Source: Verrucomicrobiota bacterium
GTDB taxonomy: Bacteria > Verrucomicrobiota > Verrucomicrobiia > Limisphaerales > UBA1096
Assembly: GCA_014382705.1 (NCBI GenBank)
Contig: JACNJE010000095.1
Location: forward strand, 303-64,302
DNA length: 64,000 nucleotides
Direction of reading: 5' to 3'
Shown piece after piece: positions 2,270-24,124 of the stretch. Positions within the stretch are counted from its first letter, which is position 1. Each line of letters starts with the position of its first letter. The notes under the pieces were generated by a model that searched no databases, had not been told where the DNA came from, and saw only the letters and a list, made by a program, of their open reading frames with translations. Both the position numbers and the translations under genes were made by a program.

Positions 2270-2277
2270 CTCAAAAA

Positions 2278-2852
2278 ATCAGTTTGAAACCATCCATCCG
2301 TTCTTGGATGGCAACGGGAGGATTGGGCGGCTGTTGATCCCCCTGTTTCTTTGTGATCGCGGGAGCCTCTCGCAACCGCTGCTCTATTTGTCCGGTTTCT
2401 TTGACGAAACACGGGACGACTACTACCGCCACTTGCTGGAGGTCAGCCAAACGGGACGTTGGCGGGAATGGGTTGAATGCTTTCTCCGCGGAGTACGCTT
2501 GCAGGCCAAACGCGCGTTGGAGGATACGGAACGCATTCTGGCGTGCTATGGCCAATATCAAACACGGTTGAAAGCAGGAAAACGGGTTCCGCAGGAGGCG
2601 GCCCGTGTTCTCGACCAAGTCTTCGCCAACCCCTTTCTCTCCATCGCCAAACATGCGAAGCGAGTCGGGATCACTTATCCAAGGGCCAAACGCGGAGTGG
2701 ATTTCTGGATCAACGAGGGGCTGTTGGTGGAAACCACCGGGCAACGCCGCAATCGCTTCTACGTGGCGGATGAACTTCTCCAGATCATGTCGCCCCCTTC
2801 ATCACCCGTGAACGCGACGCTTCCGGATGACAACGCGGAAGAGCAACCATGA
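2278..2852 (+). pseudogene. 5'-truncated Fic/DOC family protein (C-terminal about 190 aa)
   Basis: The Fic motif HPFLDGNGRIGR begins only about 5 codons after the junction repeat. A C-terminal winged-helix-like tail is present (RRNRFYVADELL). The whole N-terminal half of a normal Fic protein is missing. Confidence 0.75.
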
Positions 2853-3816: not shown

Positions 3817-4140
3817 TACCCGTGCACCTGTTGACAAGACAAGGGTCGCAAAATCACTATCTCCTTCCGCCCAACGAATAAGGACCGCCCATTTGGTGGA
3901 TTTTGTGTGAGCGGGAATCCATTTCCATCCAACCTCCCGTCGAAAAATCGCAACCCCCTCCAGCCCTGTCCATGAGGACATTTTAAAAGAGTTTTGACAG
4001 TGAAGTCTCGCCCGGGGTTCCCGGCCGCCGGGGCGTAGCCGAGTCCGGAAAGCGGCGGTACCGCTCAGGCGGACGGGGTGAGCTACGGGATTTGTTTGGG
4101 TTGCCATCCGGCGGAAGTTGGGTATCTTCCCGCCAAACGA

Positions 4141-6246
4141 ATGGTTTGGTTGATGATGACCCCTCGTACCATACTTATTCTGGCCTGTGCCGTGATGTTT
4201 CATGGAGCAGCCGTTGGTGTGTCGTTGTCGGCCTCGCGCGTGGACGCGCTGCTGGCGACAGACAACCAGGGCGGCGGCGGGGTGGCGCTTGGCCAAGCGC
4301 TGGACGACCTGGCCTTTCTGCGCAAGGCCACCCTCGACATGGTGGGGCGGATCCCGACTCACGCGGAAATTCTGCAGTATCAGCGGTGGCCGTTGGCCAA
4401 GCGGCGGGCGATGCTGGTTGAGCGGCTGCTCAAGGATGACGGGTTCGCCGACCGCTGGACGGTGTTCTTCGCGGACCTGCTGCGCATCCGCAGCCGGGCC
4501 GAGGGTGGCAACCGGCTGCTCGCTTACGTGCACCAGTCGATCGAGTCCGGCAAGCCGTGGGATATCATGACGCGGGAATTGATCGCGTCCAGCGGCTCGG
4601 CCGGCAAGGCCCCGTCGGTCGGGTTCTTGTTGGCGGACGATTCCGACCCGATGGCGATGGCTGCCGCCACGGGGCAGATTTTCATGGGCGTGCGCATGGC
4701 CTGCGCGCAGTGCCACAACCACCCGTTCGACAAGTGGCGCCAAAAACAGTTTTACGAGCTGGCCGGTTTCTTCGGAAAAACCCGGCAGGTCGAAAGCCGG
4801 CTCAGCAATAAGACCTACGTCACCGAGGGGGAGGAAATGAAGGTGCTGTGGCCGCCGGAACGCCGCAAGCCGAAGCAGCGGTTCCCGGTGGCACCCAAGT
4901 TTCCGTTCCCGATCGATGACACTGCGGCCAAGCCGGACCACCTGAAACGACTCGAGGCGTTGCGGGCCGGGGAACTGAATGCGGACAAAAAGCAGAGGGA
5001 AACCGACGCGCTGGATGCGTTGATCGATGCCGTGGGCGCACCCGAATCGCCCGGAGCCGAGCCGGCCGGCCTCGACGTGGCCCGTGAAGCGAAGGCGGAC
5101 ATCCGCAAACTCAATGTCCAGGGCGACCTGTACCGGCGCAGCGAGTTGCGCACCGAGTTGGCCCGGATGGTGACCCATCCCCAAAACCGCTACTTCGCGC
5201 GAAACCTCGTCAACCGCGTCTGGGCAGAATTGCTGGGGCGCGGCTTTTACATGCCGATCGACGACTACCAGGGCGAGGTCACGCACCCGAAAACCGTCGA
5301 GCACCTGTGCGACGAGTTCGTCGCCAACGGCTATGATGTGCGATTCCTTTTCCGGACGATTCTGGAAACCGACGCGTACGCCCGCGCGCCGCTCGGTGCG
5401 GAGGCCGGGAACGAGGCGCGGGAGGCGTCGCAGGCGGCTTTCGCCTCCGGCATCACGCGCCGGATGGTGAGCGAGGTGCTCTACGACAGCATCGTGATCG
5501 CCGGTCACCTGCAGGATTACAAATGGCCGAAGGGCGCCAACGTGCGGGCGTTCGAGCGGCGGGTGCGCGTGCCGCTCGACCCCGATCCCGAGGCGGCGGC
5601 ACCGGCGGAAGCCGAAGCGGAGCTTGGCCAAGCGGAGATAAAAATGGCCGCCAAGCCCAAGCCGTACGACTTGGAGCAGGTCATCTCGCTGAACTTCGAC
5701 AAGTTGGCGACGTCCGATCTGGAACAGGACTTGGGCCGGATGAAGGTGATGTCGGATCAGGAACTCGAGGCCAAGCGGATGGCCGAGATGGCCCGGAAGA
5801 AAAAATCGCTCCGCCGCCGGTACACCTACAAGACCGTGACGGAGGAGGTCGACGACAACCCGCGCTTCTCCAGCTCGATGCGCATGGCCACCCCGGCCGC
5901 GCCGTCGCATTTTCTGCGCGTATTCGGGCAGCCGTCCCGCGACGGGCTGGGCGAGTTCCGCGAGCACACCCCGTCGATGCGCCAGGCGCTGATGATGCTC
6001 AACGGCAAGGCCACGCACGAGGCGTCGCGCGTCGGGCCTTACGAGCCGATCCACCGGCTGCTGACCGGCGAAGGCAAAAACTTGGCCAAGGCGGTGGAGC
6101 TGGCCTACCTCGAGACCCTGACCCGCAGGCCAAGCGCGGAGGAACAGGCCGAGGCATTGGCCGTGCTTGGCCAAGCGCCGCTGGAGGGGATGGCCGACCT
6201 GCGCTGGGTGCTGCTCAACAGCCACGAATTCCGTTACCTCCCGTAA
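4141..6246 (+). CDS. DUF1549/DUF1553 (PSD1) domain protein, secreted
   Basis: Signal peptide MMTPRTILILACAVMFHGAAVG, the CAQCHNHPFDKW motif typical of DUF1549, and a C-terminal ...LRWVLLNSHEFRYLP typical of DUF1553. The start is chosen at the Met preceding the signal peptide; the ORF opens at 4078. Confidence 0.85.
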   Translation: MVWLMMTPRTILILACAVMFHGAAVGVSLSASRVDALLATDNQGGGGVALGQALDDLAFLRKATLDMVGRIPTHAEILQYQRWPLAKRRAMLVERLLKDDGFADRWTVFFADLLRIRSRAEGGNRLLAYVHQSIESGKPWDIMTRELIASSGSAGKAPSVGFLLADDSDPMAMAAATGQIFMGVRMACAQCHNHPFDKWRQKQFYELAGFFGKTRQVESRLSNKTYVTEGEEMKVLWPPERRKPKQRFPVAPKFPFPIDDTAAKPDHLKRLEALRAGELNADKKQRETDALDALIDAVGAPESPGAEPAGLDVAREAKADIRKLNVQGDLYRRSELRTELARMVTHPQNRYFARNLVNRVWAELLGRGFYMPIDDYQGEVTHPKTVEHLCDEFVANGYDVRFLFRTILETDAYARAPLGAEAGNEAREASQAAFASGITRRMVSEVLYDSIVIAGHLQDYKWPKGANVRAFERRVRVPLDPDPEAAAPAEAEAELGQAEIKMAAKPKPYDLEQVISLNFDKLATSDLEQDLGRMKVMSDQELEAKRMAEMARKKKSLRRRYTYKTVTEEVDDNPRFSSSMRMATPAAPSHFLRVFGQPSRDGLGEFREHTPSMRQALMMLNGKATHEASRVGPYEPIHRLLTGEGKNLAKAVELAYLETLTRRPSAEEQAEALAVLGQAPLEGMADLRWVLLNSHEFRYLP

Positions 6247-6259
6247 CACCAAAACGATC

Positions 6260-7525
6260 ATGAAAGAGACAGGATGCCTTGATTATCAATTGACCCGGCG
6301 GCGCATGATGCAGGCGACCGGGGCGAGCCTTTTGGGGATGCCGGTGGCGCGCCTTCTCGCCGCGCACCACACGTCGGCCGCCGCCAAGGCCAAGCACGTC
6401 ATTCTATTCTGGAACGGCGGCGGCATGAGCCACGTCGACACGTGGGATCCCAAGCCGGGCCGTCCGGTGCAGGGTGACTTTTCCGCCATCAACACCTCCG
6501 CCGACGGCGTCCAGATCAGCAGCATCTTTCCAAACCTCGCCAAGCAGATGCACCACTGCGCGCTCGTGCGATCCATCGCCGGGACGAACGGCGCGCACGG
6601 CCGCGCGACGTACGAGCTGCAGACCAGCTACAACATGGACCCGTCGCTGATCCACCCCGGCCTCGGCTCGATGGTCGTTCACGAGAAGGAACGGCTCGGC
6701 GACCTGCCGTCGTTCATCACCATCAACGGCCAGGCGCCCAGGTCCGGCTACCTCGGCCAGCGCTGTGCCGCCTATTTCATCGGCGAGCCGGGCGAGAAGG
6801 ATCCGTACCTTGCCTTCCCCGCCGGCATCAACCAGTTGCGCGGCAACAAGCGGCTGGACCTGCTGGCCCGCATGAACACCCGCACCACCCGGCGGAGCGG
6901 CAACACCAACTTCAAGGCCACCGAGACGGCCATCAAGGAGGCGGTCGCGCTGATGAAGAGCCCGACACTGAACGTGTTCGACCTCGACAAGGAGAACCCG
7001 GACACGCTGGCCCGCTACGGCGACACCGACTTTGGGCGGGGCGCACTGCTCGCGCGCAAGCTGGTCGAGACCGGCGTGCGCTTCGTGCAGGTAAACCGCG
7101 GCGGCTTTGACACCCACTCCAACAACTTCCCGGCGATGGAAAATCACGGGCTCGAGATGGACCCGGCGCTGGCGGCGCTGATCGAGGACCTGGCCGCCAG
7201 CGGCAAACTCGACTCGACCGTCGTGCTGGTGCTCAGCGAGTTCGGGCGCACCCCGCGCATCAACAACAACGCCGGGCGCGACCACCACGCGAGCTGTTTC
7301 AGCTGCCTGATCGCCGGCGGCGGCATCCGCGGCGGCCGGGTCGTCGGCGCCTCCGACCGGGACGCGATGGAGCCGGCCGAGCGCCCGGTCAAGCCAAGCG
7401 ACCTGCACGCCACCGTCTGCCACGCGCTTGGCATCGACCACGAAAAGGAAGTCTACACCCCGCAGGATCGGCCGATGGTCCTGGTTCGCGAGGGCGCCAA
7501 GCCGGTGAAGGAACTGTTCGCCTGA
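6260..7525 (+). CDS. DUF1501 domain protein (sulfatase-fold, Tat-type signal)
   Basis: TRRRMMQATGASLLGM, VILFWNGGGMSHVDTWDPKP and SEFGRTPRINNNAGRDHH. It lies 13 nt after the PSD1 gene, the canonical PSD1-DUF1501 pairing. Confidence 0.85.
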   Translation: MKETGCLDYQLTRRRMMQATGASLLGMPVARLLAAHHTSAAAKAKHVILFWNGGGMSHVDTWDPKPGRPVQGDFSAINTSADGVQISSIFPNLAKQMHHCALVRSIAGTNGAHGRATYELQTSYNMDPSLIHPGLGSMVVHEKERLGDLPSFITINGQAPRSGYLGQRCAAYFIGEPGEKDPYLAFPAGINQLRGNKRLDLLARMNTRTTRRSGNTNFKATETAIKEAVALMKSPTLNVFDLDKENPDTLARYGDTDFGRGALLARKLVETGVRFVQVNRGGFDTHSNNFPAMENHGLEMDPALAALIEDLAASGKLDSTVVLVLSEFGRTPRINNNAGRDHHASCFSCLIAGGGIRGGRVVGASDRDAMEPAERPVKPSDLHATVCHALGIDHEKEVYTPQDRPMVLVREGAKPVKELFA

Positions 7526-9963
7526 TGCCGGGACCCATGCCACGACCGCGCCGCCGTCCATGGCGGCGTTTTTGTGTCGGGCGGCTTTTGTTGCCCGCGT
7601 TGGGCGGCGCCTTGGCCGTTTCACTCGCGCTTGGCCAAGCGGCGAAGGAGACCAAGCCGGGGCCACCGCGCGGGTCGATCGTCGAGGATCGCGCCGCACG
7701 CAGGCTGCTCGAGGCCGGGGATCTGCGGATGGATGCCGGAGAGAGCGACAAGGGACTCGAGCTGTGGCGCTCGGTCATCGAACGGTATCCTCTGAGCAAA
7801 GTCCGGTTCCTGGCCCACATGAAACTGGGTGAGCACCATCTCACCGTGCTGGCGGATCATGCCAAGGCGCGCGCCCACTTCGAGGCGGTTTATTCGGTCG
7901 AAAACCGGGACGAAGACCAGCGGGCGCTGGCCCTGTTGAAGACCGGTGTCTGCCTGTACGAGGCCCGGCAGTACGGGCAATGCTTCAAGATTTTCCGGCA
8001 AGTCATCGGGGACTACCCCGTGTCGCGGCACGTGAACCGCGCCTACTACTTCATCGGCCTCGGCCACTTCAAGCAGGGCCACTACGGGCGCGCAATCGAC
8101 GCGCTGGAAAAGGTCGGCACGGTGACCTCAACCAACCGGCTTGGCCAAGCGAAGCTCGAGATCGGCAAGCGCCTGTTCATCAAGGTCGAGGACGCCGATC
8201 TCGCGGTGCTGAAAAAGGACGAGACCGTTCGGGCAACCTGCAAAACCACCGGCGGCGATGAGGAAACGGTCGACTGCCTCCCGCTTGGCCGCAACGTGCG
8301 GGTGGTGCTCGGCTCCACTGCCACCCGGCTGGGCCGCCCGAGCGCGAACAACGGCGTGTTGGAGGTTTCCGGCCGGGATGAAATCAGCGTCCGCTACAGC
8401 GACGAGCACACGGCCGGCGGCCAGTTGAACCAGGAACGCCTTCGCAGGCTCACCGTTGCGGGCAACGCCGCGGCGCGGATCATGGACGGCGCCTTCGTCG
8501 ATCCCATGGACGGCGTGGTCGTTGGCAAACAGGTGAACGTCGAGATTGTGGATGCGGACCGGGACCAGACGGATGACGCCGACTGGGTAGAGGCACAGGT
8601 GAAGCTGTACCGGAAAAAAACCGCTGCCGAGATTGAGGAGGAGGCCAACGAGCGCGCCGCCGAGGAGGCGCTTAACAGGGAAGCCGAGGGACGGGTGGTC
8701 GCCGAGGATGCCCCGAAAAAGGAACTCAGCGATGAGGAAAAATTCCAATTGCGACACCACCTGATCGACCAGGCCCGGCTGGTGGCCACCGAGGTCGCGG
8801 TGGAATCGGCCGACAGCGGACCGCCGCCACCCGGCGAACCGGAAGCCCCGGCGGAGGCACTGTCGCCCGGTGACTTGAGCGGCGATGCCAAGCCGAACAG
8901 TGGATTCGTCGCGCTCGTGGAGGAGGAGGCCCGGGACGATTCCATCCACACCGGGTTGTTCCAAGGCTCGCTCCCCGTGCGTCAGGCGCGGGAGGTCGTG
9001 GCCGGCGACGCGGTGCTGCAGGCCGTGCCGGGGGACATCGTGCGGGTCGAGTACCTCGACCAACTCAACACGACGCCGGCACCCCGGCGGCTCTCGGCGC
9101 GCGCGGTCTGCATCGAGGGCAGCCTCGGCGACGTGCGGGTGGCCAAGGCGCAGATTCCCGACGAGGATCTCCGGTTGCGGACGAAGCTCAAGACGGCTCG
9201 CGCCCTGACCAAGATAGGCAGCCATTACAAGGAATTCGGGCTCGACGATCCCGCCCGCATCAAGTTTCGGGAGGCGCTGGAGGTGGCCGAGGAGGCGGCC
9301 GCGCGCGGCCGCGAACTCCAGAGTCCCGTGCTGGAACAATGCTACGTGCAGCTTTGGGAAATCTATTTTGCCCTCGACGACCTGCGCCTCGCGGTGGCGA
9401 TGAGCCAGCGTTTGATGCGCGAGTTTCCGGAGAGCACCTTCATCGACGACGCGATGCTCAAGCAGGCCGAGATCGCCCGCAAACAGGGCGGCTTCCGGGA
9501 AGCCATCGCGCTCTACGGCAGCCTGCTCAAGCTCAACGCGAGCACCCTGCGCGACGAGGCGCAGTTCGGCATCGCCGTGTGCTATGAAAAAATGGCGGAA
9601 GCCGCCACCGGCTCGCGTTCGCAGTCGTACTACGAGAAGGCGTTCGAGAATTACCAGAAAGTGTACGAGCAGTTCCCGGAGAGCGGCCGGGTCGGGGATG
9701 CCGTGGCGCGGGCGGCGAACTACTTTTACCAGCGCCAGGATTACCAGCGGGCCATCGACGTGTTCGAAGGCGTCATCGCCAACCACCCGGACGCCAACTT
9801 CCTCGATGTCATCCATTTCAACTACGGCCGCTGCCTGTACCGCGTCGACCGCAAAAACGCCGCCCGCCAGCAATTCGACCTGCTGGTGGCCGATTATCCG
9901 GAGAGTAAACTGGCCGAGGAGGCCAAGCGCATCAGCGACGCCCTCGTAAAGGCCGGGTTTTAA
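7525..9963 (+). CDS. secreted TPR-repeat protein (812 aa) with central DxDxD beta modules
   Basis: The start overlaps the DUF1501 stop by 1 nt. Signal peptide ends ...AVSLALGQA. TPR-like helices sit at both ends. Central modules include FIKVEDADLAV...ISVRYSDEH and VNVEIVDADRDQTDD. Confidence 0.8.
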   Translation: MPGPMPRPRRRPWRRFCVGRLLLPALGGALAVSLALGQAAKETKPGPPRGSIVEDRAARRLLEAGDLRMDAGESDKGLELWRSVIERYPLSKVRFLAHMKLGEHHLTVLADHAKARAHFEAVYSVENRDEDQRALALLKTGVCLYEARQYGQCFKIFRQVIGDYPVSRHVNRAYYFIGLGHFKQGHYGRAIDALEKVGTVTSTNRLGQAKLEIGKRLFIKVEDADLAVLKKDETVRATCKTTGGDEETVDCLPLGRNVRVVLGSTATRLGRPSANNGVLEVSGRDEISVRYSDEHTAGGQLNQERLRRLTVAGNAAARIMDGAFVDPMDGVVVGKQVNVEIVDADRDQTDDADWVEAQVKLYRKKTAAEIEEEANERAAEEALNREAEGRVVAEDAPKKELSDEEKFQLRHHLIDQARLVATEVAVESADSGPPPPGEPEAPAEALSPGDLSGDAKPNSGFVALVEEEARDDSIHTGLFQGSLPVRQAREVVAGDAVLQAVPGDIVRVEYLDQLNTTPAPRRLSARAVCIEGSLGDVRVAKAQIPDEDLRLRTKLKTARALTKIGSHYKEFGLDDPARIKFREALEVAEEAAARGRELQSPVLEQCYVQLWEIYFALDDLRLAVAMSQRLMREFPESTFIDDAMLKQAEIARKQGGFREAIALYGSLLKLNASTLRDEAQFGIAVCYEKMAEAATGSRSQSYYEKAFENYQKVYEQFPESGRVGDAVARAANYFYQRQDYQRAIDVFEGVIANHPDANFLDVIHFNYGRCLYRVDRKNAARQQFDLLVADYPESKLAEEAKRISDALVKAGF

Positions 9964-9972
9964 AGAAACGAA

Positions 9973-15900: not shown

Positions 15901-17817
15901 AAGCCGCCCGCCCCGTCGCTGCCGCTCAAGCGCGGGGATCGGGTGTATCTGCGGTACGTCGACGAGCAAAACACGTTCCCCGGCCACAAACATCCCCGCG
16001 AGTCGGTGGTGTTCGTCAATGAACCCACCGAGGCCAGGGTGCGTGTGTTGGGCACCCGCTGGATTCCGCCGGACATCGACCAGCCGGAGGCCAAGCCAAG
16101 CCACGAATATTTGCTCCTGCCGTTTGCCAGCACCAACGCCTCGCCAGTCTCGGTGCAGATGCCGCTGACCGTCGAGGTGGTGGACCCGGACAGGGCCAAG
16201 ACCAGCGGCAGCCGTGTGACGATCAACCTCGCCGTGGGCGAAAACCGGACTGCCCGCGTGGAGTGCGTGCTGTCGGCCAAGTTCGCCGGTGAGCCGCCGA
16301 AGGAGTATTCCGAGCCGATCACCGCCGGCCAAGCGCTGGTCGAGGGGCGGTTTGTGGGCCAGATGCTGCTCAGTCTCGGCGACGACACGAGCCCGGATCG
16401 GCTGCCCATCACGCCCGAGACGCCCGGCGGCCTGATCGGCCAGGTGATGGCTGCACCCAAGCCCGGCGCGGAGACGGGGGGAAAGTCGGGGGCCGAGGTG
16501 CGGGTGCTGCCGCTCATGGGCGGGGAACTGGCCAAGGCCACCTACCGGGATGAGAGTCGGCCCGGCAGCCCGGCTGTCGTTGCCGGAGCAACGGGTTCGC
16601 TCGTCAGTGACGCCACGCTGCGCATCACCGACTCACAGTACGCGGAGGCGGCGGAGTCGCTACACGCGGGCGAGCGGTTATTCCTGATCGTTGAGGACCG
16701 GGATCAGGATGTCTCCCCGTCACAGGATCAGGTTGTCGTGACGGCCACGAGCACAAGTGGCGAGAGCGAAAGCGTCACCCTCACCGAAACATTGACGCAC
16801 AGCGGCGTGTTCACCGGCTCGTTCCCGCTGCTCGCGCGGAGCCAGCCGAGGCCAAACAGCGGCGACAACAGCATCGAGTGTTTCTTCGGCGACCGGCTTG
16901 ACGTGGTGTACCGCGACCAGTCGAACGCCACCCGGCAGGCGGCGGATCGGCGGGCTCAGGTGTCGATCGCGATTGGCACGGACGGGTTGCTGGCGGCGTT
17001 CAGCAAGTTTTTCGAGGACGTGGATCTGGCAGCGCAAACGCGATTCCACATCGCCGAGAGTTACTTCGAGTTGTTCAAGTCGCAGAAAAAACTGGAGCGC
17101 CCCGAGCAGGCGCAGGCCAACCTCGACCACGGCCGGCGCGTGCTGCGCGAGTTGGCGGAGGATTTCCCGGATGAAAAATATGCCGCACGCGTGAGCTATC
17201 TGCTGGGCCAGTTCGCGCAGGAGCAGGAGGATTGGCCGGGGGCGATCCAGTCGTACCGGGAGATCGTCCGCCGCTTCCCGGACCACGCGCTCGCGCCGGA
17301 CGCCCAGTACAAGCTGGCGCAGTGCCACGAGGAGGCGGGTGACTTTGACCAGGCACTCGAGGAATACGTCGCAATGGCGGCGATCCACCCGGACAGCCCG
17401 CTGATCCCCAAAGTGATGGTCCGCATCAACGAGTATTATTACCTGAAGGAAAACTACCCGGTGGCGGCGCGCGTGTCCGGCAAGTTCATCGAGCGGTTCC
17501 CCGAGCACGAACTGGCCTCGCGGATGGCGTTCCGCTGGGGGCAGTGCCACTACAAGCAGGCGGCCTACACCGAGGCCGCAGAGCGGTTCGAGGAGTTTGC
17601 CAAGCGGTATCCGGACGACAAACTGTGCGCCGAGGCGCTGTTTTGGGCGGGGGAAAGTTTCCGGATGGACAAGGACGTCCCGATGGCGTTTCGCTACTAC
17701 AACCGCTGTCGCTGGGATTACCCGGAATCGGAGGCGGCCAAGTATGCCCGGGGCCGCCTGGCCCTGCCGGAGATGCTGGCCCAGTTCGAGCGCGAGGCGG
17801 ATCTGGAGGACGAATGA
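9973..17817 (+). CDS. giant secreted protein (2614 aa): N- and C-terminal TPR arrays with discoidin-like, PA14-like and repeated DxDxD...ETxxxSGxFxG beta-sandwich modules
   Basis: Uninterrupted 7.8-kb ORF. Signal peptide ends ...ALATVALGQA. PESRWTSEPDGIAPKWLAVDM is an F5/8-type-C-like motif. SGHFIQRRPGAVRFEVSADVGGVMIGGR is PA14-like. The C-terminal YbgF/TPR-like repeats include YLLGQFAQEQEDWPGAIQSYREIVRRFPDH. Confidence 0.85.
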   Translation: MSGRINDWVRGTAAAVMALATVALGQAQETPGPAKTAQQITALQLKLRQSADDSKQGAKLLLELADLADDHGRPFTLIRAAKRFVVAHPGHLRQPELMLKLIDAQLVTGRDSDALSTARQFLSRHPEHPSVAEVHRLLAAVLERDRLHSSAAAEWTKAFEGGTGHPGDAARAVLLHRREGSHRSYAEAAALSARLLTEDTDPATRREAGWLAIDSARRSANQGVIIETGERIADANVRLGGERQVALHTALAAAYWGRKEAKPAVAHYSEAVKLDPVYPRFKAYFEVANGAALPAAAMQSMFDLFEQQTFPGNETATILGYFAAAKAREEKTTEAAAMALRAARIAPAIHQSPRKYVRWAVETSTGFPEIERNLKAIIDAPGGDPFYAHFALAFDLYRDRMKRPGLAQEAVRRMITESPADSSDMTGAINWLLAAAPSDAIFNADAKLIHDTAVRHVRLAAFRNFQRDWLKQNRGNKKWRSRVQTMNRLAKDYAALPEVKLWTDSTASGNKAAEARESLLAGTLTDAARNDLLARQAYDYRHRLKPRDKSIDYYRRLAKRVPEDAAVGRAWLDAAHHYGDHEARGEAIRFLLGQAPSANDPHSWILMLDGSERLGDTGLAKAVSDWIGNSQAQHGPTQERAGEIGERLGRMGLAAEAAAHWEKAAFIDLGSDEARKCIANLLKGEQSAEHRGALLGRCLEQVTANHGPYAAWRAGEYFEAADWDAFENTLLTARQASDEHIFFPWNMGSDPALGWVDDIRGDAGMDDETRRRLLSVIESVHAGLASASARLALEELMGESGSPTMASQKAVWQAVLWSADHPSHWDHLMPYARRFVSTGRHAQAATLLTAMLHKIPRADEGRKKTARTMLTKLFTVMSEAELDLDEDNPLAPLLKISLLLQIGDAESAASQYVKHRSLFEQRFRELPTRILLFAARTEMAAGSEEGLSRTEEMLRLWLVHNTENKQATPEDQAAVQLLLAKTYFQSGRYDVARGEYTTVLNQHPDTAAATDARFGIAQCYVEQKVFDKAEEIFAELRDDPSPGTNLRAEFLMGVMAIRQGDYDIAREMFQAVLERMPDNDLANETLYHLAEVFGIEQRFLDQLNMLRTIGRLGQRSKRWHTPGNSLFIVVHDSDLGISRGNARIPVDVASAPGGDTERVFLSSGGAGKGLFTAEIATILDEPTVSDGVLQISGADTIHVDYPESFKREFNTELPQLDVIRIASDATFKAASRKIEDEKKETLTEQLTRQTNQPEEGDRRKSIQRNASQIRPGNFVYLRVVDFDRDRGNALDELMVNLTASNGDAVTGRLTETSPHSGAFEGMVPTAEMPAGATATDMAIDHGPLRAIDHDPESRWTSEPDGIAPKWLAVDMKDVHPVDTAQFSFGTTPSQAPKRMRLLGSHDGRFLYEVARHPLGQAHDAAMFGKGKPVVPRQSGWRYHDLGQNLGQAWREPSHDDSAWPSGNGPLGYGDLGSLKPATTLHYGDDAGSKHPTAYFRKSFQFDPAKLGAATGITARVLSDDGFVLYLNGTEVARDNMPDGEVTFDTLTPANRASNEEDLYKEFPLSLAALRHGRNVLAAEVHQPNSTSTDLGFDLELLLFSDQSPHGITQRVFRLDKGETISTWNDAVKIAMNQPATETSVAESLEWQPEAEEINAKQRAKRSNLVVWSGHFIQRRPGAVRFEVSADVGGVMIGGRTVGLTGEEEGPATSHDIFLEAGRHAFTAIAWVADPREGVSCVRARENLAKAAVTPAPFRLSDFVLSEEERAEFEATAAASHQRTTTAEMEEDKLTFALGGWSLRHLRLVVDEYTGNSVSVKNVTVAAGGRTLIPPKEDVLELAKNSILEIAAGDSITAVYIDELTDGGLQQNRQLEQTLQATYFNGGITPVAYEFRRQADGGIRAVDHELLRMEPGERIVAEVTDFDLDRTAEPDRVPVEFQVNLGQALRLEATETGPNTGVFRVEIDTGSEAGPPPTETAKPPAPSLPLKRGDRVYLRYVDEQNTFPGHKHPRESVVFVNEPTEARVRVLGTRWIPPDIDQPEAKPSHEYLLLPFASTNASPVSVQMPLTVEVVDPDRAKTSGSRVTINLAVGENRTARVECVLSAKFAGEPPKEYSEPITAGQALVEGRFVGQMLLSLGDDTSPDRLPITPETPGGLIGQVMAAPKPGAETGGKSGAEVRVLPLMGGELAKATYRDESRPGSPAVVAGATGSLVSDATLRITDSQYAEAAESLHAGERLFLIVEDRDQDVSPSQDQVVVTATSTSGESESVTLTETLTHSGVFTGSFPLLARSQPRPNSGDNSIECFFGDRLDVVYRDQSNATRQAADRRAQVSIAIGTDGLLAAFSKFFEDVDLAAQTRFHIAESYFELFKSQKKLERPEQAQANLDHGRRVLRELAEDFPDEKYAARVSYLLGQFAQEQEDWPGAIQSYREIVRRFPDHALAPDAQYKLAQCHEEAGDFDQALEEYVAMAAIHPDSPLIPKVMVRINEYYYLKENYPVAARVSGKFIERFPEHELASRMAFRWGQCHYKQAAYTEAAERFEEFAKRYPDDKLCAEALFWAGESFRMDKDVPMAFRYYNRCRWDYPESEAAKYARGRLALPEMLAQFEREADLEDE

Positions 17818-17822
17818 CCCGG

Positions 17823-17844
17823 AAGCGCCCCGGCGCTTTTGGTT
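17823..17844 (+). terminator. weak hairpin AAGCGCC-CC-GGCGCTT followed by TTGGTT, between the giant gene and exbB
   Basis: A 7-bp inverted repeat read directly 6 nt after the stop codon. The T-run is short, so this may be an attenuator or processing site rather than a full terminator. Confidence 0.25.
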
Positions 17845-17886
17845 CACTTTGGGGGGTGCGCTTGGTACGTTCCGCAGCCGAAACCG

Positions 17887-18696
17887 ATGTTGAACCCGAG
17901 CTTAATTCTGGCGCAGTCCGCGCTTGGCCAAGCGGGCGGCACCAACGCCCCGCCGGCCGATGCCGCCCAGGCGGAACCGGGGCCGTCTGCCGTCGCCGAG
18001 TTTTTCGATTCCGGCGCGCTTGGCCTGCTGCTCGAGGGGGGCTTCTTCATGTGGCCCATCCTGTTGCTGGCACTGGTCGGCTTGGCCGTCATGATCGAGC
18101 GGTGGCGCAGCCTGAAAATGCTGGGCGTCGATGCCGGCGACCTGAAACAGGCGGTGCTCAACGACCTGACCGAGAGCCGGGTTGGCGATGCGCTCGAGCG
18201 GTGCGAACGGGAGCGCGGCCCGGTCGCCGCCATCCTTGCCAACGGCCTCCGCAAATATCTGGTTCTCAGCAAGCTCGATTACGATCCGGCGCGGCTTGAG
18301 GAAAAAGTCGTCAAGAGCATGGAGGGTTACGGCGCGCACATCCTCGCCGCGCTGGAGCGCCACCTGCCCCTGCTGGCCATCGTCGCCAGCGTCGCGCCGA
18401 TGATCGGCTTCCTTGGCACCGTGCAGGGGATGATCGTCGCGTTCAGCGACATCGTCGAGATGGACAAAACCGGCGGCGGCAACATTATCCAGGCGGCGGC
18501 GGCCGGTATCCAGGTGGCGCTGTTGACAACCTGCTTCGGCCTGATCGTCGGCATCCCGGCCTACGTGGCGTTCAACTATTTCTCGAGCGTGATCAACAGT
18601 TTTGTGCTCGAGGTGGAGGAGTCCGCCGCCGAGTTGATGGAGGCGGTCACCCTGCAACTGACCCTCCGCGAGGACAAACCGCCCGACTCACCGTGA
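17887..18696 (+). CDS. exbB: MotA/TolQ/ExbB proton-channel family protein
   Basis: FFMWPILLLALVGLAVMIERW and APMIGFLGTVQGMIVAF signatures, and three TM segments. The N-terminal extension has a signal-like ...SALGQA. An alternative start exists at 17839. Confidence 0.85.
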   Translation: MLNPSLILAQSALGQAGGTNAPPADAAQAEPGPSAVAEFFDSGALGLLLEGGFFMWPILLLALVGLAVMIERWRSLKMLGVDAGDLKQAVLNDLTESRVGDALERCERERGPVAAILANGLRKYLVLSKLDYDPARLEEKVVKSMEGYGAHILAALERHLPLLAIVASVAPMIGFLGTVQGMIVAFSDIVEMDKTGGGNIIQAAAAGIQVALLTTCFGLIVGIPAYVAFNYFSSVINSFVLEVEESAAELMEAVTLQLTLREDKPPDSP

Positions 18697-19112
18697 AACT
18701 GCGCCGACCCAAATACCTCGTCGAGACGCCAACCAGCGCGATGAACGACATCGCGTTCATCCTGATTGTGTTTTTCCTCGTGTGCGCCTCGGTCGAGCCG
18801 GAGGACGGCCGCTCACAGGTGATTCCCCGCAGCGAGAAAAACGAGAAGGCAGAGGCCTCGCAAAGCACCGAGGTTGGCCTCACCCCGGCCACCGTCACCA
18901 TCGACGGCACCCCGTACCGGCTGGAGGAGTTCCCGCCCCGCATCCGGCAGTTGCTCGCGCAAAAGAAAACCGAAGCCGGGCGGGTGGTCGTGCTCAAGAG
19001 CCAGGCCGACGTGCCGTACGCGCACTGGATCGCGATGACCGAAATCATCGAGCAAGCCGGAGGCATCGTCACGCTGCTGCTCGAGGAGGAGCAGGCTGTC
19101 CACCTCAATTAG
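18693..19112 (+). CDS. exbD: ExbD/TolR family biopolymer transport protein
   Basis: 139 aa. N-terminal PTSAMNDIAFILIVFFLV TM helix typical of ExbD. The GTG start overlaps the exbB stop (GTGA). Confidence 0.85.
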   Translation: MKLRRPKYLVETPTSAMNDIAFILIVFFLVCASVEPEDGRSQVIPRSEKNEKAEASQSTEVGLTPATVTIDGTPYRLEEFPPRIRQLLAQKKTEAGRVVVLKSQADVPYAHWIAMTEIIEQAGGIVTLLLEEEQAVHLN

Positions 19113-19115
19113 CGC

Positions 19116-19535
19116 ATGATCCTCCGGCGAAAAACCTTCGAGGCAACCGTGCCATCCATGGCCATGGGCGACATTGCTTTCCTGTTGCTGATCTTCATCG
19201 TCCTGCTGGCCCGGGCGCGCGACGAGAGCCATCTTGTCTGGCAGCCGGCCACTGGCACGGAGCTGGTGAAACCGGCGAACCGAAACGCCAGCGTGGTGAT
19301 CGACAGGCAGAACGTCACCTACCTGAACGGCCGCGCCATCCCGGTCGAGACCCTCGCCGCGGAACTTGAGTCACTGCTGGGCGACCTCCCCGCCGGCGGA
19401 CGCACGGTCCTGTTCAAGGTGCACAAGGACGTGATCGCCGAGTTTTTTGAGCCGGCCATCGAGGCCGTGAGCGAGGCCGGCGGCGAGCTGCACCACGTGC
19501 TGGAACCGGCTTCCAACCCGGCCTCAGCCCCCTAA
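19116..19535 (+). CDS. exbD: ExbD/TolR family biopolymer transport protein (second paralog)
   Basis: 139 aa with SMAMGDIAFLLLIFIVLL. It lies 3 nt after the first exbD. Confidence 0.85.
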   Translation: MILRRKTFEATVPSMAMGDIAFLLLIFIVLLARARDESHLVWQPATGTELVKPANRNASVVIDRQNVTYLNGRAIPVETLAAELESLLGDLPAGGRTVLFKVHKDVIAEFFEPAIEAVSEAGGELHHVLEPASNPASAP

Positions 19536-19539
19536 TCCC

Positions 19540-20217
19540 ATGACCGTTTACCTGCTGAAAGACGGAAACGAAATCGGCCCACTCGAGCCGGCTGAAGTTC
19601 AGGCGTTGATCGACGCCAACTGCATTGCGGCGAGCCAGCCGATCCGCCTCGAAGACGGCACGACCGGGACCGCCGGCACGCTGCCCGGCGTCCGCTTGGC
19701 CAAGCCGGACGCGCCCGCCGCCCCGCTTGGCCAAGCGCCCGCACCGGCCCCCGCACCGATGGCCAGCCTGACGCGGGACGTGAAATCGCTGAAGCGCAAC
19801 AGCGCCGCCGTGTCGGCGGAGCTGAACCAGTTCATGCGGGAAATGCGCGGCAAGTCTCCCCGCGAGATGCTCGGCGCGGTGGCGCGGAGCAGCCTTGTCC
19901 GGAGCGGCTTCACCGCGGCCGGCCTCCTCGCGATCATTCTCTTTTCCGCGACCGTCATCCCGTTTGCGACGCGGAGTGACGCCGAGACAGCGCGACAGCC
20001 CGACACGCCTCAACCGGCCGCACCGGCAAACACGAATGCCCCACCCCCGCCGCCCGCGACCGCCGCACCGGCGCAGACGAACGCCCCGCCCCCCGCCGGT
20101 GACAAGCAAAAGATCGCCGACAAGCTGGGCATCGGCGAAACCAAGCAGGGCCAGCCCAGCGAACCCAACCCGTTCGAGAGCACCGGCGACCTGTTGCAGG
20201 AACTCGAGTCGCCTTGA
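19540..20217 (+). CDS. single-pass membrane protein with an N-terminal GYF_2-like domain and a Pro/Ala-rich tail (occupies the TonB/TolA position, lacks a TonB C-terminal domain)
   Basis: MTVYLLKDGNEIGPLEPAEVQALIDANCI is GYF_2-like from memory. The TM helix is GFTAAGLLAIILFSATVIPFA. It is followed by PDTPQPAAPANTNAPPPPPATAAPAQTNAPPPAGD. Confidence 0.55.
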   Translation: MTVYLLKDGNEIGPLEPAEVQALIDANCIAASQPIRLEDGTTGTAGTLPGVRLAKPDAPAAPLGQAPAPAPAPMASLTRDVKSLKRNSAAVSAELNQFMREMRGKSPREMLGAVARSSLVRSGFTAAGLLAIILFSATVIPFATRSDAETARQPDTPQPAAPANTNAPPPPPATAAPAQTNAPPPAGDKQKIADKLGIGETKQGQPSEPNPFESTGDLLQELESP

Positions 20218-21704
20218 CGGACGCCCCGACAACCGGTCCCGGTGACTGGACGGCGTTCCGGCCGCTGGCCAGCCGCGCGCTCCTTGGCTGGGCGCTGGGC
20301 ATGGCGGTGGTTTGGCTGGATCGGTTCTCCCTTTACCTCCTCCCGGAATGGCTGCTTCTGGTATTGCTCACGGCGGTCGTCGTGGTCGCTGCCCGGTGGG
20401 CCGCTACCGCCCGGCCGCTTGGCCAAGCGCCGTTTCGCGCCGCGGTGTCCGCCGTCATTCTGCCGGTTTGGCTTTGGCTGGTGATGGTGCCGGCGTGGCT
20501 TGGGTGGATGGCGCTGAGTGCCTCGCTCGCGCGGCTTGGCCTCGGGGTGGTGTTTGTGACCGGGCTGGGCTGGGCGGTATGGCTGGTGGAACGCACCTCG
20601 CGGCGGCTCTTGGCCAAGCGCAGTGTCCCCTCCCTGCGGGGCGGCTCGACGGCGGTGCCGTTACTGGCGATGAACGGGGCGCCTGGCCGGGCGGCCGTCC
20701 GTTCGTCCAACCCGCTCGACATCGAGGCGTGGTACTACGGCAGGAAGCGCCGCAAGCTCAACCAGTCCGCCACCACCGTCGCGGCCTACTCGCTCCTGTT
20801 CGCGCTGCTGCTGTTGCTCGCCGGCTTCCTCACCGGTTGCAACGAGATTTACGAGATGCCCGAGGGCGGCGGCGAGCCGCAACTGCGCCAGCAGATCGTG
20901 CGAATCCAGAAAGTGATCCGCAAAAAATACGTCATCAATCCTCTGAGCGCCGTGCTGTTCAACCCGCCACCGATCGAGGAGATCAAGCTTCAGTTGCAGG
21001 AATTGACCCGGCACATCTATCAAGTCGGCCAGGGCGAGGGCAAAAACGCCGGCTTCGAGGGCGGCACCCAGCGCGGCAAGGTGCGTTTCATCCGCCTCAG
21101 CTACCCCGGCGGCGACTGGGAGCAGGACCTCGACCGCAACGCAGATCTGAACATGCTGCTGTGGTACGCGGCCAACACCGGCCAGAAGACCGCCAAAAAG
21201 CCGGAGGTGCGCAGCGTGCGCCAGCTCAAGCGGTTCCCCGCCGGCAAAAGCCCGCCGATGGTGTACATGACCGGCCAGGGCAAGATCAGTCTCGGCGAAA
21301 CAGATCACGGGATTCTCCGCGAATACCTCACCGACAAGCACGGTATGTTGTTTGCCGACAACGGCGGGAGTGCCGGCTGGCACAGCCAGTTTTTTTCGCT
21401 GATGGAGAAGGTGCTGCCGAAGGTCAAGCCGCAGCCGGTACCGCTGGATCATCCCGTTCATTCCGGGGTGCCGTTCCTGCCGGTGGTGGCGCCGCACGGC
21501 GGCCGCACCGCTTGGGGATGGGTAGTCGACGGGCGCCTGGCCGTGTATTACCACCCCGGCGACGTGGGCGACGCCTGGGCTGACGGTCACGCCGGGGTGC
21601 CACGGCAGGTCTGGGAATCCGGCTTTCGCCTAGGCGGCAATATCCTGCTTTATGCACACTCGGAATACAGCCGATGGTTGACCGCAAAAAACAACTCGGA
21701 CTGA
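20214..21704 (+). CDS. polytopic membrane domain fused to a DUF4159-like C-terminal domain (496 aa, TTG start uncertain)
   Basis: Four to six hydrophobic helices in the first 200 aa. The C-terminal VRFIRLSYPGGDWEQDLDRNADLNMLLWY...MVYMTGQGKISL...LFADNGG resembles DUF4159 from memory. Confidence 0.55.
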   Translation: MTDAPTTGPGDWTAFRPLASRALLGWALGMAVVWLDRFSLYLLPEWLLLVLLTAVVVVAARWAATARPLGQAPFRAAVSAVILPVWLWLVMVPAWLGWMALSASLARLGLGVVFVTGLGWAVWLVERTSRRLLAKRSVPSLRGGSTAVPLLAMNGAPGRAAVRSSNPLDIEAWYYGRKRRKLNQSATTVAAYSLLFALLLLLAGFLTGCNEIYEMPEGGGEPQLRQQIVRIQKVIRKKYVINPLSAVLFNPPPIEEIKLQLQELTRHIYQVGQGEGKNAGFEGGTQRGKVRFIRLSYPGGDWEQDLDRNADLNMLLWYAANTGQKTAKKPEVRSVRQLKRFPAGKSPPMVYMTGQGKISLGETDHGILREYLTDKHGMLFADNGGSAGWHSQFFSLMEKVLPKVKPQPVPLDHPVHSGVPFLPVVAPHGGRTAWGWVVDGRLAVYYHPGDVGDAWADGHAGVPRQVWESGFRLGGNILLYAHSEYSRWLTAKNNSD

Positions 21705-23305
21705 TTTGCGCCGTCGCAATTTGGCTGTGCACGCCCGTCGAGCCGACGGCGGCCAAGCTGTCTTGGTTGGAGCAAATCGAGGTCGGGACCTTCGCCGAGC
21801 TGCGCGAAGTGGAGCGGTTCCAGCTCAAGGCGGCCGAGGCGTTTTACACGAAGGGAGAGTTCGCCGCCGCCGGTGCCGAGTACGAGAAATTCATCACCCT
21901 TTACGAGCGCAGCCCCGGTGCGCCGTACGCCCAGCTCATGTGGAGCCACTGCCAGGTCCGGCAACGCAACGTGTACACCGCCATCCGGGATGGCTTCCGC
22001 TCCGTAATCGACTACTGGCCCGAGTCGCGCGAGGCCAAGTTGTCCGCCTACCTCATCGGCCGCTCGTACAAATCGGTGGGGGAAGTGAAGCAGGCCGACG
22101 CCGCCTACGGCAAGGCGATCACGGCTCACCCCGGCGATCACGTTGCTGTGTTGTCCAAATGGGACATGGCCGAGATCGCCCACATTCGGAAAGACACCCA
22201 ACGGCTCGAGCAGGTCTGGAGCGATCTGGTGTTCAACACCAAGCTCAACAAGCAAAACCGAACCTACGTCGAGCGCGCCGCCCAAGGCCTGGCCAAGCAT
22301 CACTTCGCCGGGGCCGACTTCGCCAAGGCCCGCAAGGCGCTCGAGGTGCCCTACAGCGGCGGTGCCGTGCTGGACGCCATTTATCAAAACGCCAAGGGCG
22401 CAATCAGCCGTCTTTGCGGCGATGACCCAACCCGGCGCAGCGGCGAACAACTTGCCGACCGGATCATCACCCTGCTCCTCGACGAAACACTTCACATCCA
22501 GCCAAGCGGCAACGGGACGGATGAAATCCGCGAGCTTCACCGACGCGCCGCCCGGCTGCACGAGCGCGCCGGGCGCGACCTCGACGTCGTCAAGACCTAC
22601 GAGCGCTTGGCCAAGCGCATCGGGATGGATGACGGCGTGCGCGGCAGCATCGCCGCCTGGCACCGTGCAAAAAAACGGCATCCGAAGGCCCGGGAGCTTT
22701 ATGCCCAATTCGAGGACAAAACAGATGGCCTGATCCGGATCGCCGACACTTGGCTCGAGGAAGGGCAGCCGGCCGAGGCGATCCGCCTCTATGACCGCTT
22801 GGCCAAGCTTGAGCCGAACCGGCTCGCCGACTGGAAAAAGGCCATCGGCGGGATTTACACGGACTCGGGCCAGCACGACAAGGCCATCGAGGTTTACCGG
22901 GAACTGATCACAATCGCCCCGGCGGAGGCCAGCACTTGGTACTGGACCATCGGCGGCATTTACGAGCACACCAACCGACTCAAGCTGGCCATCCAGGCCT
23001 ACCGCCAATCCGACCGCTACCCACAGGCCTACTTCCAGATGGCCAAGTGCCATCGAAAACTGAAGGAATACACCGAGGCACTGACGCTGTATCACCAGGC
23101 GCTGGCCACGGAGAAGGTCGCGCCCGACGCCACTCTGGCCATCGGCTACACCTACGAGGAACAGGCCAAAAAGAAGGACGCCATCAAGTGGTTCCAGCGC
23201 ACCTGCAAACTTTACCCCCGCACCCGCAACGCCAGCAAGGCCCACGCCCACCTGCAGAAGGAGTACGGCATCAGCGTCACCCTCGGCGGGTCAAGGGAGA
23301 AATAA
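21674..23305 (+). CDS. TPR-repeat protein (543 aa), secreted
   Basis: N-terminal hydrophobic signal LGLICAVAIWLCTPVEP. Repeated TPR-like A..Y..A/L..P patterns run throughout, for example AIRLYDRLAKLEPN and AIEVYRELITIAP. Confidence 0.75.
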   Translation: MVDRKKQLGLICAVAIWLCTPVEPTAAKLSWLEQIEVGTFAELREVERFQLKAAEAFYTKGEFAAAGAEYEKFITLYERSPGAPYAQLMWSHCQVRQRNVYTAIRDGFRSVIDYWPESREAKLSAYLIGRSYKSVGEVKQADAAYGKAITAHPGDHVAVLSKWDMAEIAHIRKDTQRLEQVWSDLVFNTKLNKQNRTYVERAAQGLAKHHFAGADFAKARKALEVPYSGGAVLDAIYQNAKGAISRLCGDDPTRRSGEQLADRIITLLLDETLHIQPSGNGTDEIRELHRRAARLHERAGRDLDVVKTYERLAKRIGMDDGVRGSIAAWHRAKKRHPKARELYAQFEDKTDGLIRIADTWLEEGQPAEAIRLYDRLAKLEPNRLADWKKAIGGIYTDSGQHDKAIEVYRELITIAPAEASTWYWTIGGIYEHTNRLKLAIQAYRQSDRYPQAYFQMAKCHRKLKEYTEALTLYHQALATEKVAPDATLAIGYTYEEQAKKKDAIKWFQRTCKLYPRTRNASKAHAHLQKEYGISVTLGGSREK

Positions 23306-23390
23306 ACCGGCCCCAGAACGGCCAACCCGTGTCCCGCCGACCTTCATCACCTGTTCATTGGAACGGGCCAAACCCCAAAATAACAGAGAT

Positions 23391-23414
23391 GCAGTATTGC
23401 AGTATTGCAGTATT
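23391..23414 (+). promoter_or_regulatory. 3 x 8-bp perfect tandem repeat GCAGTATT upstream of the antitoxin gene (candidate operator)
   Basis: GCAGTATTGCAGTATTGCAGTATT read directly, 18 nt upstream of the ATG at 23432. Confidence 0.4.
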
Positions 23415-23431
23415 TGAGTACCTTGGGCGTG

Positions 23432-23671
23432 ATGACGAGCGTGAAGTTGAACGAGCGCGGCTCGCTGACATTGCCGAAGCGGTTGCGGGAGAAGTACGCG
23501 ATGGACGGTGACTCCACGGTGATCGTGGAGGATGCCGGCGAGGGCATTCTCGTGCGCCCGGCGGAAGTGGTGCCGGTGGAGATTTACAGCGAGGCACGGC
23601 TGGCGGAGTTCGCCGGGGGGGAGGCGGAGTTGGCCCGGTATCTCAAGTCGAAACCCGGTGGCCGCAAGTAA
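23432..23671 (+). CDS. AbrB/SpoVT (MazE/VapB-type) antitoxin
   Basis: MTSVKLNERGSLTLPKRLREKYAMDGDSTVIVEDAGEGILVRP is a swapped-hairpin AbrB-type DNA-binding fold. The stop is directly followed by the PIN gene ATG (TAAATG). Confidence 0.75.
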   Translation: MTSVKLNERGSLTLPKRLREKYAMDGDSTVIVEDAGEGILVRPAEVVPVEIYSEARLAEFAGGEAELARYLKSKPGGRK

Positions 23672-24100
23672 ATGGGTGCTGAGACGCCACTGCGGGTTTT
23701 CTGCGACGCGAACATGCTCTTTTCTGCGAGCAAGCTGCGCAGTGCCATTCGGCGGCTGGTTCAGGCGCTGATCAAGCGCAAGGCGGCGGTGGCCAGCCGG
23801 TACGCAATCGTGGAGGCGGAGGCGAATCTGCGGGCCAAGCAGCCGGACTGGCTCCCGCATTGGCCAAAACTCCGGGGGAGGTTTCGGGTGCACGATGCAC
23901 GGGCAGAAATCCGGGTGCGCGGGCTGCCAGAAAAAGATTTGCCGATTGTGCAGGCAGCCGTGTTGGCCACGGCCACGCATTTGCTCACGGGCGACCAAAA
24001 ACATTTCGGCTCCCTAATGGGCAAATCGGTACGCAGCGTCAAGGTGGTGTCGCCCCGGATGCTGGCGATGGAACTGGAGGCAATGGGATGGACGGTGTGA
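23672..24100 (+). CDS. PIN-domain toxin (VapC-like)
   Basis: 142 aa. N-terminal VFCDANMLFSA with an acidic Asp, and C-terminal ...LLTGDQKHFG, typical of PIN nucleases. Confidence 0.7.
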   Translation: MGAETPLRVFCDANMLFSASKLRSAIRRLVQALIKRKAAVASRYAIVEAEANLRAKQPDWLPHWPKLRGRFRVHDARAEIRVRGLPEKDLPIVQAAVLATATHLLTGDQKHFGSLMGKSVRSVKVVSPRMLAMELEAMGWTV

Positions 24101-24124
24101 TCTCGCAGCCGCACTTGGCCAAGG

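Follow-up and report, generated by a model that had tools for sequence, protein, structure and literature searches.

Several described systems resemble, in one part or another, the locus considered here. The core complex of the Agl-Glt machinery (AglR, AglQ, AglS, GltD, GltE, GltC and GltG) is encoded by clustered genes in Delta- and Gammaproteobacteria and in Fibrobacter, and its function outside myxobacteria is unknown (Luciano et al. 2011, PMC3169522). For bacteria of the Planctomycetota-Verrucomicrobiota-Chlamydiota (PVC) group, Williams-Jones et al. (2025) reported loci with the order tetratricopeptide repeat (TPR) gene-tolQ-tolR-tolR, followed by genes of membrane-tethered vWA transducers, and proposed them as a third class of motor-driven system; these transducers have a single transmembrane (TM) segment, a SHLS/His motif and a C-terminal vWA domain, and two of them are present in Tichowtungia (PMC12204202). 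PVC bacteria also carry DUF1501/PSCyt/PSD1 loci of many architectures, catalogued by Kamneva et al. (2012, PMC3542564), and in Rhodopirellula baltica the PSD1/PSCyt and DUF1501 families reach 41 copies of each domain (PMC2754498). Here we describe an operon-like array of ten plus-strand genes (positions 4141-23305), which joins a PSD1/DUF1501 pair to large TPR proteins and to an ExbB-ExbD-ExbD motor. It lies in a 64,000-nucleotide (nt) stretch of Verrucomicrobiota DNA (contig JACNJE010000095.1), called “the window” below. The genes, designated g1-g10 and read from the list of open reading frames (ORFs) and their translations, are as follows (protein lengths in amino acids, aa).

4141-6246, plus strand: g1, secreted protein of 701 aa with PSCyt2 (DUF1549) and PSD1 (DUF1553) domains (Pfam, signal peptide)
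6263-7525, plus strand: g2, DUF1501 protein of 420 aa with a Tat-like signal (RRR) (Pfam DUF1501, 348 bits)
7525-9963, plus strand: g3, secreted TPR protein of 812 aa (Pfam TPR families)
9973-17817, plus strand: g4, secreted giant TPR/beta-rich protein of 2614 aa (Pfam TPR families)
17819-17842, plus strand: terminator-like hairpin directly after the g4 stop, in the 69-nt gap between g4 and g5, at a module boundary
17887-18696, plus strand: g5, TolQ/ExbB-type proton-channel subunit of 269 aa (Pfam MotA_ExbB)
18693-19112, plus strand: g6, ExbD/TolR paralogue 1 (Pfam ExbD)
19116-19535, plus strand: g7, ExbD/TolR paralogue 2 (Pfam ExbD)
19540-20217, plus strand: g8, single-pass Pro-rich membrane protein with its N-terminus inside (no Pfam family)
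20214-21704, plus strand: g9, polytopic membrane protein with a periplasmic DUF4159 domain (Pfam, DUF4159 at aa 291-481)
21674-23305, plus strand: g10, secreted TPR protein of 543 aa, last gene of the array (Pfam TPR families)

The gaps from g1 to g10 are +16, -1, +9, +69, -4, +3, +4, -4 and -31 nt. The layout given in the initial annotation, ten co-directional genes on the plus strand with gaps of -31 to +69 nt, was obtained again, its start/stop overlaps at 7525, 18693-18696 and 20214-20217 being seen as the gaps of -1, -4 and -4 nt, and a Pfam scan of the ten proteins matched the domain it had assigned to each gene. The ORF of g1 opens at 4078 and has an ATG at 4141 ahead of a signal peptide; the ATG of g5 at 17887 is kept in relatives.

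Relatives of g3 were registered in 453 species (one genome scanned per species), and the best 79 of these 453 loci were retrieved and compared with all ten proteins of the array (related loci carry labels such as L006), upstream counts being taken from ORFs and tblastn. Among these 79 loci, almost all contigs of sufficient length retain the order PSD1-DUF1501-TPR-giant TPR-ExbB-ExbD-ExbD-small TM protein(-DUF4159-TPR). Orthologous g1 and g2 stand directly upstream of g3 in approximately 57 of the 62 loci whose upstream DNA is long enough. Almost all loci having room for g4 have it after g3, most have ExbB after g4, and in 30 of 37 ExbB is in turn followed by ExbD. Three contexts of g3 homologues, labelled Verrucomicrobiota, Kiritimatiellia and Phycisphaera, display the same order from PSD1 through the small protein(-DUF4159). 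Reciprocally, downstream of all three g1 orthologues picked by similarity to g1 come DUF1501, a ~750-aa TPR protein and a ~2400-aa giant, and g9 orthologues lie within ExbD-ExbD-g8-g9-TPR, again in three cases out of three. A gene order shared by about 70 loci that are independent at the species level is far beyond chance, and the synteny across PVC bacteria on which the initial annotation had made its proposal depend is found under both the Verrucomicrobiota and the Planctomycetota label. Each lineage has other genes beyond g1 and g10, which can therefore be taken as the borders of the array. In a neighbour-joining tree of g2, Planctomycetota and Verrucomicrobiota labels separate, with one paralogue outside both, which points to an old and mostly vertical inheritance of the array.

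The pair itself differs from its more usual relatives. A second, canonical PSCyt1-PSCyt2-PSD1 plus DUF1501 pair is encoded on the plus strand of the same window (40316-44240), with no motor genes adjoining, and is only ~28% identical to g1/g2, whereas array orthologues retain 43-95% identity for g1 and 58-96% for g2 across taxa. Pfam scores are also lower for the array pair than for the canonical one (134 vs 319 bits for g1 and 348 vs 482 for g2). Since array orthologues are 43-96% identical while the identity to the canonical pair is ~28%, g1 and g2 apparently form a distinct orthologous subfamily of PSD1/DUF1501 proteins dedicated to this context.

In g1, residues 188-197 read CAQCH(D/N)HPFD, are invariant in the aligned orthologues and correspond to a CXXCH haem-c site, and g1 is a probable haem-c protein. 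Its AlphaFold2 (AF2) model, with a predicted local distance difference test score (pLDDT) of 74, is mostly helical. The twin-arginine (RR) of g2 is conserved across orthologues, and the motifs GGGxSHxDTWDPKP, FDTH and SEFGRTP...GRDH are invariant or near-invariant and look like a metal site. An orthologue profile of g2 searched against the PDB gave GalNAc-6-sulfatase as the top, though weak, match (E=2.7e-4), and arylsulfatases matched as well. A probable assignment of g2 is therefore a sulfatase-like metalloenzyme exported by the Tat route; the weak profile match fits the placement of DUF1501 in the alkaline-phosphatase/sulfatase superfamily. Single-sequence searches of the PDB with g1, g2 and g9 yielded nothing usable, and lenient Pfam scans of these three proteins added no further domains.

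The pair is followed by two TPR proteins, which are partly paralogous to each other (g3 vs g4, E=4e-15). In g3 a conserved non-TPR middle region precedes a CpoB/YbgF-like C-terminal TPR part; more than 300 full-length homologues at ~50% identity were found, and homologues of g3 go by the name “TolA-binding protein” at the Joint Genome Institute (JGI). The NCBIfam model TIGR02795 (tol_pal_ybgF, cutoff 90.1) scores 103 bits in g3 and 141 bits in g4, the matches being C-terminal modules within these much larger proteins. The description of g4 as a TPR/beta-sandwich protein holds for its TPR part (Pfam); for the beta-rich part there are weak F5_F8_type_C matches in homologues and a weak match to an S-layer model. 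All three TPR proteins, g3, g4 and g10, have plain type-I signal peptides with no lipobox.

Three strong hydrophobic segments and the conserved motifs GFLGTVxGM and ALLTTxxGL are present in g5, for which the highest NCBIfam score belongs to TolQ (100.7 bits at a cutoff of 221); the exbB equivalog gave 67 bits (cutoff 206), and neither cutoff is reached. Proteins g6 and g7 represent two separate, conserved paralogues, in each of which the aligned orthologues retain the transmembrane Asp. The small protein g8 consists of a degenerate cytoplasmic GYF_2 domain (E=0.087 in the window, 1.1e-10 in the L085 orthologue), a conserved juxtamembrane segment, one TM helix and an acidic/Pro-rich periplasmic linker, and ends in the conserved motif DKLG(I/V)GE.K..P...NPL(D/E)...DLL..L. 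An exhaustive search for its family gave 363 representatives; the 150 listed are 130-296 aa long, and most of the matches listed extend to the C-terminus of the protein, from which one can assume that the family has no globular C-terminal domain. For the same reason we reject a truncated TonB as an explanation of g8.

In g9 about five hydrophobic helices precede DUF4159. Its model (pLDDT 77) shows a four-helix membrane bundle, a basic loop, TM5 and then DUF4159 with a GATase1-like alpha/beta fold, and the best PDB match is 4i66, an uncharacterised DUF4159 protein, followed by the GATase domain of ADC synthase. TM5 (aa 192-209, positions 20787-20840) comes after a basic RKRRK and ends in a lipobox-like L-x-G-C, of which G208 and C209 are invariant in 55 homologues. 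Such an internal element resembling a lipoprotein signal could allow cleavage or lipidation of g9 into two products.

Rearranged relatives suggest that the array is built of two modules, A (g1-g4) and B (g5-g10). In the Planctomycetota subclade L046, L050, L070, L071 and L080, g1-g4 and ExbB are kept and an unrelated gene follows ExbB; the ExbD-ExbD-g8-g9-g10 block stands alone in L086 and upstream of g1 in L073. Channel and plug subunits thus come to be divided between the modules, an argument for a joint action of the two. After g4, where ExbB usually stands, L061 has a DUF1501 paralogue that shares 30% identity with g2 (20804-22237). The hairpin of the window is located at the same g4-g5 junction at which the array is broken in L006. 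Its stem is poorly kept in relatives and the 60 nt downstream of it are well conserved in close ones; we regard it as a weak hint at a module border, of uncertain significance. The tightest unit appears to be g1-g2-g3-g4, with a linkage to the motor that is strong and not absolute.

Two proposals of the initial annotation are modified by these data. The overlap of the DUF1501 stop with the TPR start, on which physical coupling had been based, is observed in the window and close relatives and gives way to a gap of 140-170 nt in L003 and L004. Coupling of the pair to the motor stands as a conserved linkage, the tightest link of the pair being to g3/g4 and not to the motor. What comparative genomics supports in full is the association of the pair with TPR and motor genes as such, which is real and ancient: the order is conserved, the subfamily is dedicated and rearranged variants stay linked.

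Based on these data we assume, with a probability of roughly 0.55, that the ten genes specify a single envelope system of two modules, ancient and PVC-wide, whose role is most likely envelope maintenance or remodelling. By analogy, it most likely works as a proton-driven envelope system of the Tol-Pal or Agl-Glt-core kind, and not in TonB-type import. Module B would supply an inner-membrane stator of the TolQ/ExbB family with two different ExbD/TolR subunits, in which ExbB and ExbD1/D2 may assemble into a 5:2 unit whose plug is a heterodimer. Its g8 could serve as a single-pass partner similar to TolA or TonB, lacking a globular C-terminal domain and ending in a short peptide motif, and the polytopic g9 with its periplasmic DUF4159 as a second dedicated membrane partner, the secreted g10 completing the module. 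Module A would be periplasmic and comprise the probable haem-c protein with PSCyt2/PSD1, the Tat-exported DUF1501 enzyme and two TPR/beta-rich scaffolds. CpoB/YbgF is the TolA-binding protein. Proton flow through ExbB-ExbD1/D2 may then be converted into conformational work in g8 and/or g9, and the extended linker of g8 with its C-terminal motif may dock into CpoB-like TPR grooves of g3, g4 or g10. Such docking would position or regulate the periplasmic scaffold together with the enzyme pair, which presumably acts on an envelope or periplasmic polymer.

A number of observations weigh against this assumption. Taxon labels are the submitters' assignments of metagenome-assembled genomes (MAGs), and split halves, apart from L073, were seen on different contigs of different MAGs. 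L006, a relative with 77% identity, has an array that ends after g4 and a motor separated from it, with a convergent subtilase-like gene past g4 (L006 20078-22186). At least five of the 62 loci have g3 with no adjoining g1/g2 pair: L010 starts at g3 and keeps g3-g7, and L051, L065, L077 and L082 have neither the pair upstream nor g4 downstream, and in L082 housekeeping genes surround g3, the distance to g1 being 7.5 kb. Because of these pairless loci and of L006, co-function of pair and motor is not obligatory at the level of linkage. Comparison of the g1 model with the PDB (Foldseek) gave nothing significant and no functional clue; a fold of phycobilisome linker fragments, which was the best match (E=0.2), was judged meaningless. 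In g8 there is neither a SHLS/His transmembrane motif nor a C-terminal domain defining TolA or TonB. Finally, no outer-membrane or peptidoglycan-binding component is encoded (Pfam, signal peptides), so that the array offers no candidate for the target on which the motor would pull. The term “envelope-spanning” used in the initial annotation can at most be read as a possibility: the array encodes neither an outer-membrane barrel nor a lipoprotein, and the three TPR proteins have plain type-I signals.

A bolder variant, tentative and rather unlikely at present, would make the array a third class of 5:2-motor envelope machine beside Ton and Tol-Pal, in which proton-motive force acts via g8 and the DUF4159 protein on giant TPR scaffolds holding the haem-c/sulfatase-like pair. 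If true, PSD1-DUF1501 pairs would be clients of an energised periplasmic scaffold, and this would account for the role of a protein group whose expansion in Planctomycetota and Verrucomicrobiota is one of the largest still uncharacterised. Few families of these phyla are as expanded as the PSD1/PSCyt and DUF1501 proteins, which have had no functional handle since their description (PMC3542564). The array provides a first testable context for them, a deeply conserved dedicated pair tied to a motor and CpoB-like scaffolds. It also widens the known range of TolQ/ExbB-type 5:2 motors, to which it adds a stator with two ExbD proteins, a family of transducers devoid of any C-terminal domain, a membrane partner with DUF4159 and a lineage having ExbB and ExbD genes at different loci, all in bacteria with unusual envelopes whose biology is still debated.

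The surroundings of the array contain the following features.

101-1402, minus strand: integrase-like ORF (homologue in L001/L002 flagged Phage_integrase)
1640-1711, minus strand: tRNA gene in the upstream low-GC stretch (Rfam)
2112-2852, plus strand: Fic-domain gene in the upstream low-GC stretch
4101-4128, plus strand: weak sigma-70-like promoter match just 5' of g1 (consensus scan only)
23291-33547, minus strand: urease subunits, ureD/G/F/E accessory genes and a branched-chain/urea-type ABC transporter, convergent to the array
46322-54127, minus strand: PSD3/PSD5/PSD4/PSCyt3/PSD2 (+PSCyt1) protein of 1379 aa, its DUF1552 (HXXSHH) partner and a true sulfatase

The first 4000 nt of the window have a GC content of 0.48-0.55 compared with 0.65 around the array, and this stretch looks like a tRNA-linked integrated island abutting the array start. 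Its tRNA was the sole match of the Rfam scan, which registered no leader RNA. The promoter consensus scan gave three sites against 1.5 expected, which is no evidence of function, and promoter and terminator scans overall did not exceed shuffled controls. The stretch 46322-54127 represents another PVC-typical pair of unknown function. Beyond the window, an Opitutae-labelled locus (L085) has on the minus strand, adjoining the array, a second, divergent cluster of genes for a TPR protein (>1000 aa), ExbB, ExbD and a PD40 protein of 1268 aa (13841-22028), in which these bacteria may have their Tol-Pal-like system. In R. baltica, high salinity induces exbB (RB12053) and exbD (RB12055) along with genes for envelope modification (PMC2754498); these two genes might be members of an array of the present type.

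Alternatively, two independent neighbours may have been inherited together, an ordinary PSD1/DUF1501 pair and a separate Tol-like TPR/ExbBD operon, so that their adjacency has no functional meaning. PSD1/DUF1501 pairs are indeed very numerous in PVC bacteria, as the copy number in R. baltica (PMC2754498), the variety of locus architectures (PMC3542564) and the second pair of the window all indicate, and the five loci L010, L051, L065, L077 and L082 do without the pair beside g3. Against this, the dedicated subfamily has kept its place by g3/g4 in two phyla and in spite of rearrangements of three kinds, and neutral neighbours are not expected to last over such divergence while every outer flank has changed; we consider mere co-inheritance improbable. 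Compared with the described PSCyt/PSD1-DUF1501 modules (PMC3542564), g1 and g2 are alike in Pfam membership, in the Tat signal on DUF1501, in CXXCH within PSCyt2 and in adjacency, that is, PSCyt2+PSD1 and DUF1501 genes stand side by side and both products have export signals; they differ in being a divergent subfamily tied to TPR and motor genes.

To about the same low degree one can expect that the array, in line with one of the roles suggested in the initial annotation, energises uptake or processing of an external polymer, with an outer-membrane partner encoded elsewhere and with g1/g2 binding and modifying the substrate in the periplasm. Homology to ExbB/ExbD, the sulfatase-like nature of g2, discoidin-type carbohydrate-binding (F5_F8_type_C) matches in g4 homologues and the presence of sulfatases and other PSD families nearby in the window are all compatible with this possibility. 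Of the Ton components, ExbB and ExbD homologues are recognised by Pfam (MotA_ExbB and two ExbD), with the cutoff of the exbB equivalog not reached. TonB itself has no counterpart: TonB_C is absent from the ten proteins, the TM helix of g8 has no His, and its family, free of a C-terminal domain among the matches listed, does not exceed 296 aa among them. Neither the array nor the scanned flanking genes contain Plug or TonB_dep_Rec domains (Pfam), although a receptor may exist elsewhere in the genome; the original remark that no TonB-dependent receptor is present in the array is thus confirmed for all ten proteins. A TonB box partner, transporter genes and glycoside hydrolases are also missing from the array. 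An identity of ~50%, kept by TPR proteins of 800 aa in different phyla, and the conserved order would suit a housekeeping structure better than a niche system for one substrate.

A surface-motility or adhesion machine homologous to the Agl-Glt gliding complex of Myxococcus is hardly to be expected, even though the parts list is that of the Agl-Glt core complex and some g8 orthologues have a GYF domain. GltJ also has a GYF domain. One TolQ-like and two TolR-like genes correspond, at the level of Pfam families, to g5, g6 and g7. Models of GltD/E/C gave for g4 only 33.7 bits with gliding_GltE (cutoff 225) and nothing for g3, and the array contains neither TonB_C of the GltG/GltJ type nor outer-membrane proteins of the GltA/B/H/K type (Pfam). 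Many carriers are labelled as marine or lake water-column MAGs, and the core complex alone is insufficient for motility (Luciano et al., PMC3169522).

The least probable is a PVC version of canonical Tol-Pal, for which TolQ as the top model of g5, the CpoB/YbgF model passed by g3 and g4 and the JGI name of g3 homologues may be adduced, but which lacks TolB (PD40), Pal (OmpA-like) and the TolA C-terminal domain, has two ExbD paralogues in place of one TolR and, in at least one carrier (L085), coexists with the separate TPR-ExbB-ExbD-PD40 cluster adjoining the array. An anti-phage defence system with a MotA/ExbB-like motor, such as Zorya, was rejected as well: nine of the ten proteins (all but g4) gave no PADLOC match (E<=0.001).

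The literature search for DUF1501, DUF1553 or DUF4159 in combination with ExbB, ExbD, TolQ or TPR revealed no description of the array, and among the papers searched none names DUF1501 or DUF1553 together with TolQ or ExbB. The words ExbD, TPR and operon are absent from the main text of Kamneva et al. (PMC3542564), and DUF4159 is not mentioned in the main text of the report on vWA transducers (PMC12204202).

Placed among the known systems, the array, as a probable ancient two-module envelope system, shares with Tol-Pal the TolQ-like channel (TolQ being the best model for g5 at 100.7 bits, below its cutoff of 221), TolR-like plugs with the transmembrane Asp, an extended transducer and CpoB/YbgF-like TPR proteins, represented by the C-terminal modules of g3 and g4. 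It differs by having no TolB or Pal (no PD40 or OmpA match in the array by Pfam) and by a TolA-like partner, g8, in which the TM helix and the extended linker are present without SHLS/His and without the C-terminal domain; two TolR paralogues, giant TPR scaffolds and the enzyme pair are added. To the Agl-Glt core it is similar in having one TolQ-like and two TolR-like proteins, a Pro-rich partner that crosses the membrane once and has a cytoplasmic domain, and three secreted TPR proteins that differ in size, and dissimilar in that g8 has no TonB_C and carries GYF in place of FHA, that PSD1, DUF1501 and the polytopic DUF4159 protein are added, and that it lies in PVC bacteria, where the core complex is unreported. 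From the loci of Williams-Jones et al. it is distinguished by its membrane partners: g9 is polytopic, has a DUF4159/GATase1-like domain and gave only 4i66 and GATase1 folds with no vWA match in Pfam, for which reason its identification as a vWA transducer was rejected, and g8 has no C-terminal domain. With these loci, nevertheless, the array has in common the same upstream order TPR-tolQ-tolR-tolR, and in both cases it is accompanied by membrane-tethered proteins with alpha/beta domains (PMC12204202).

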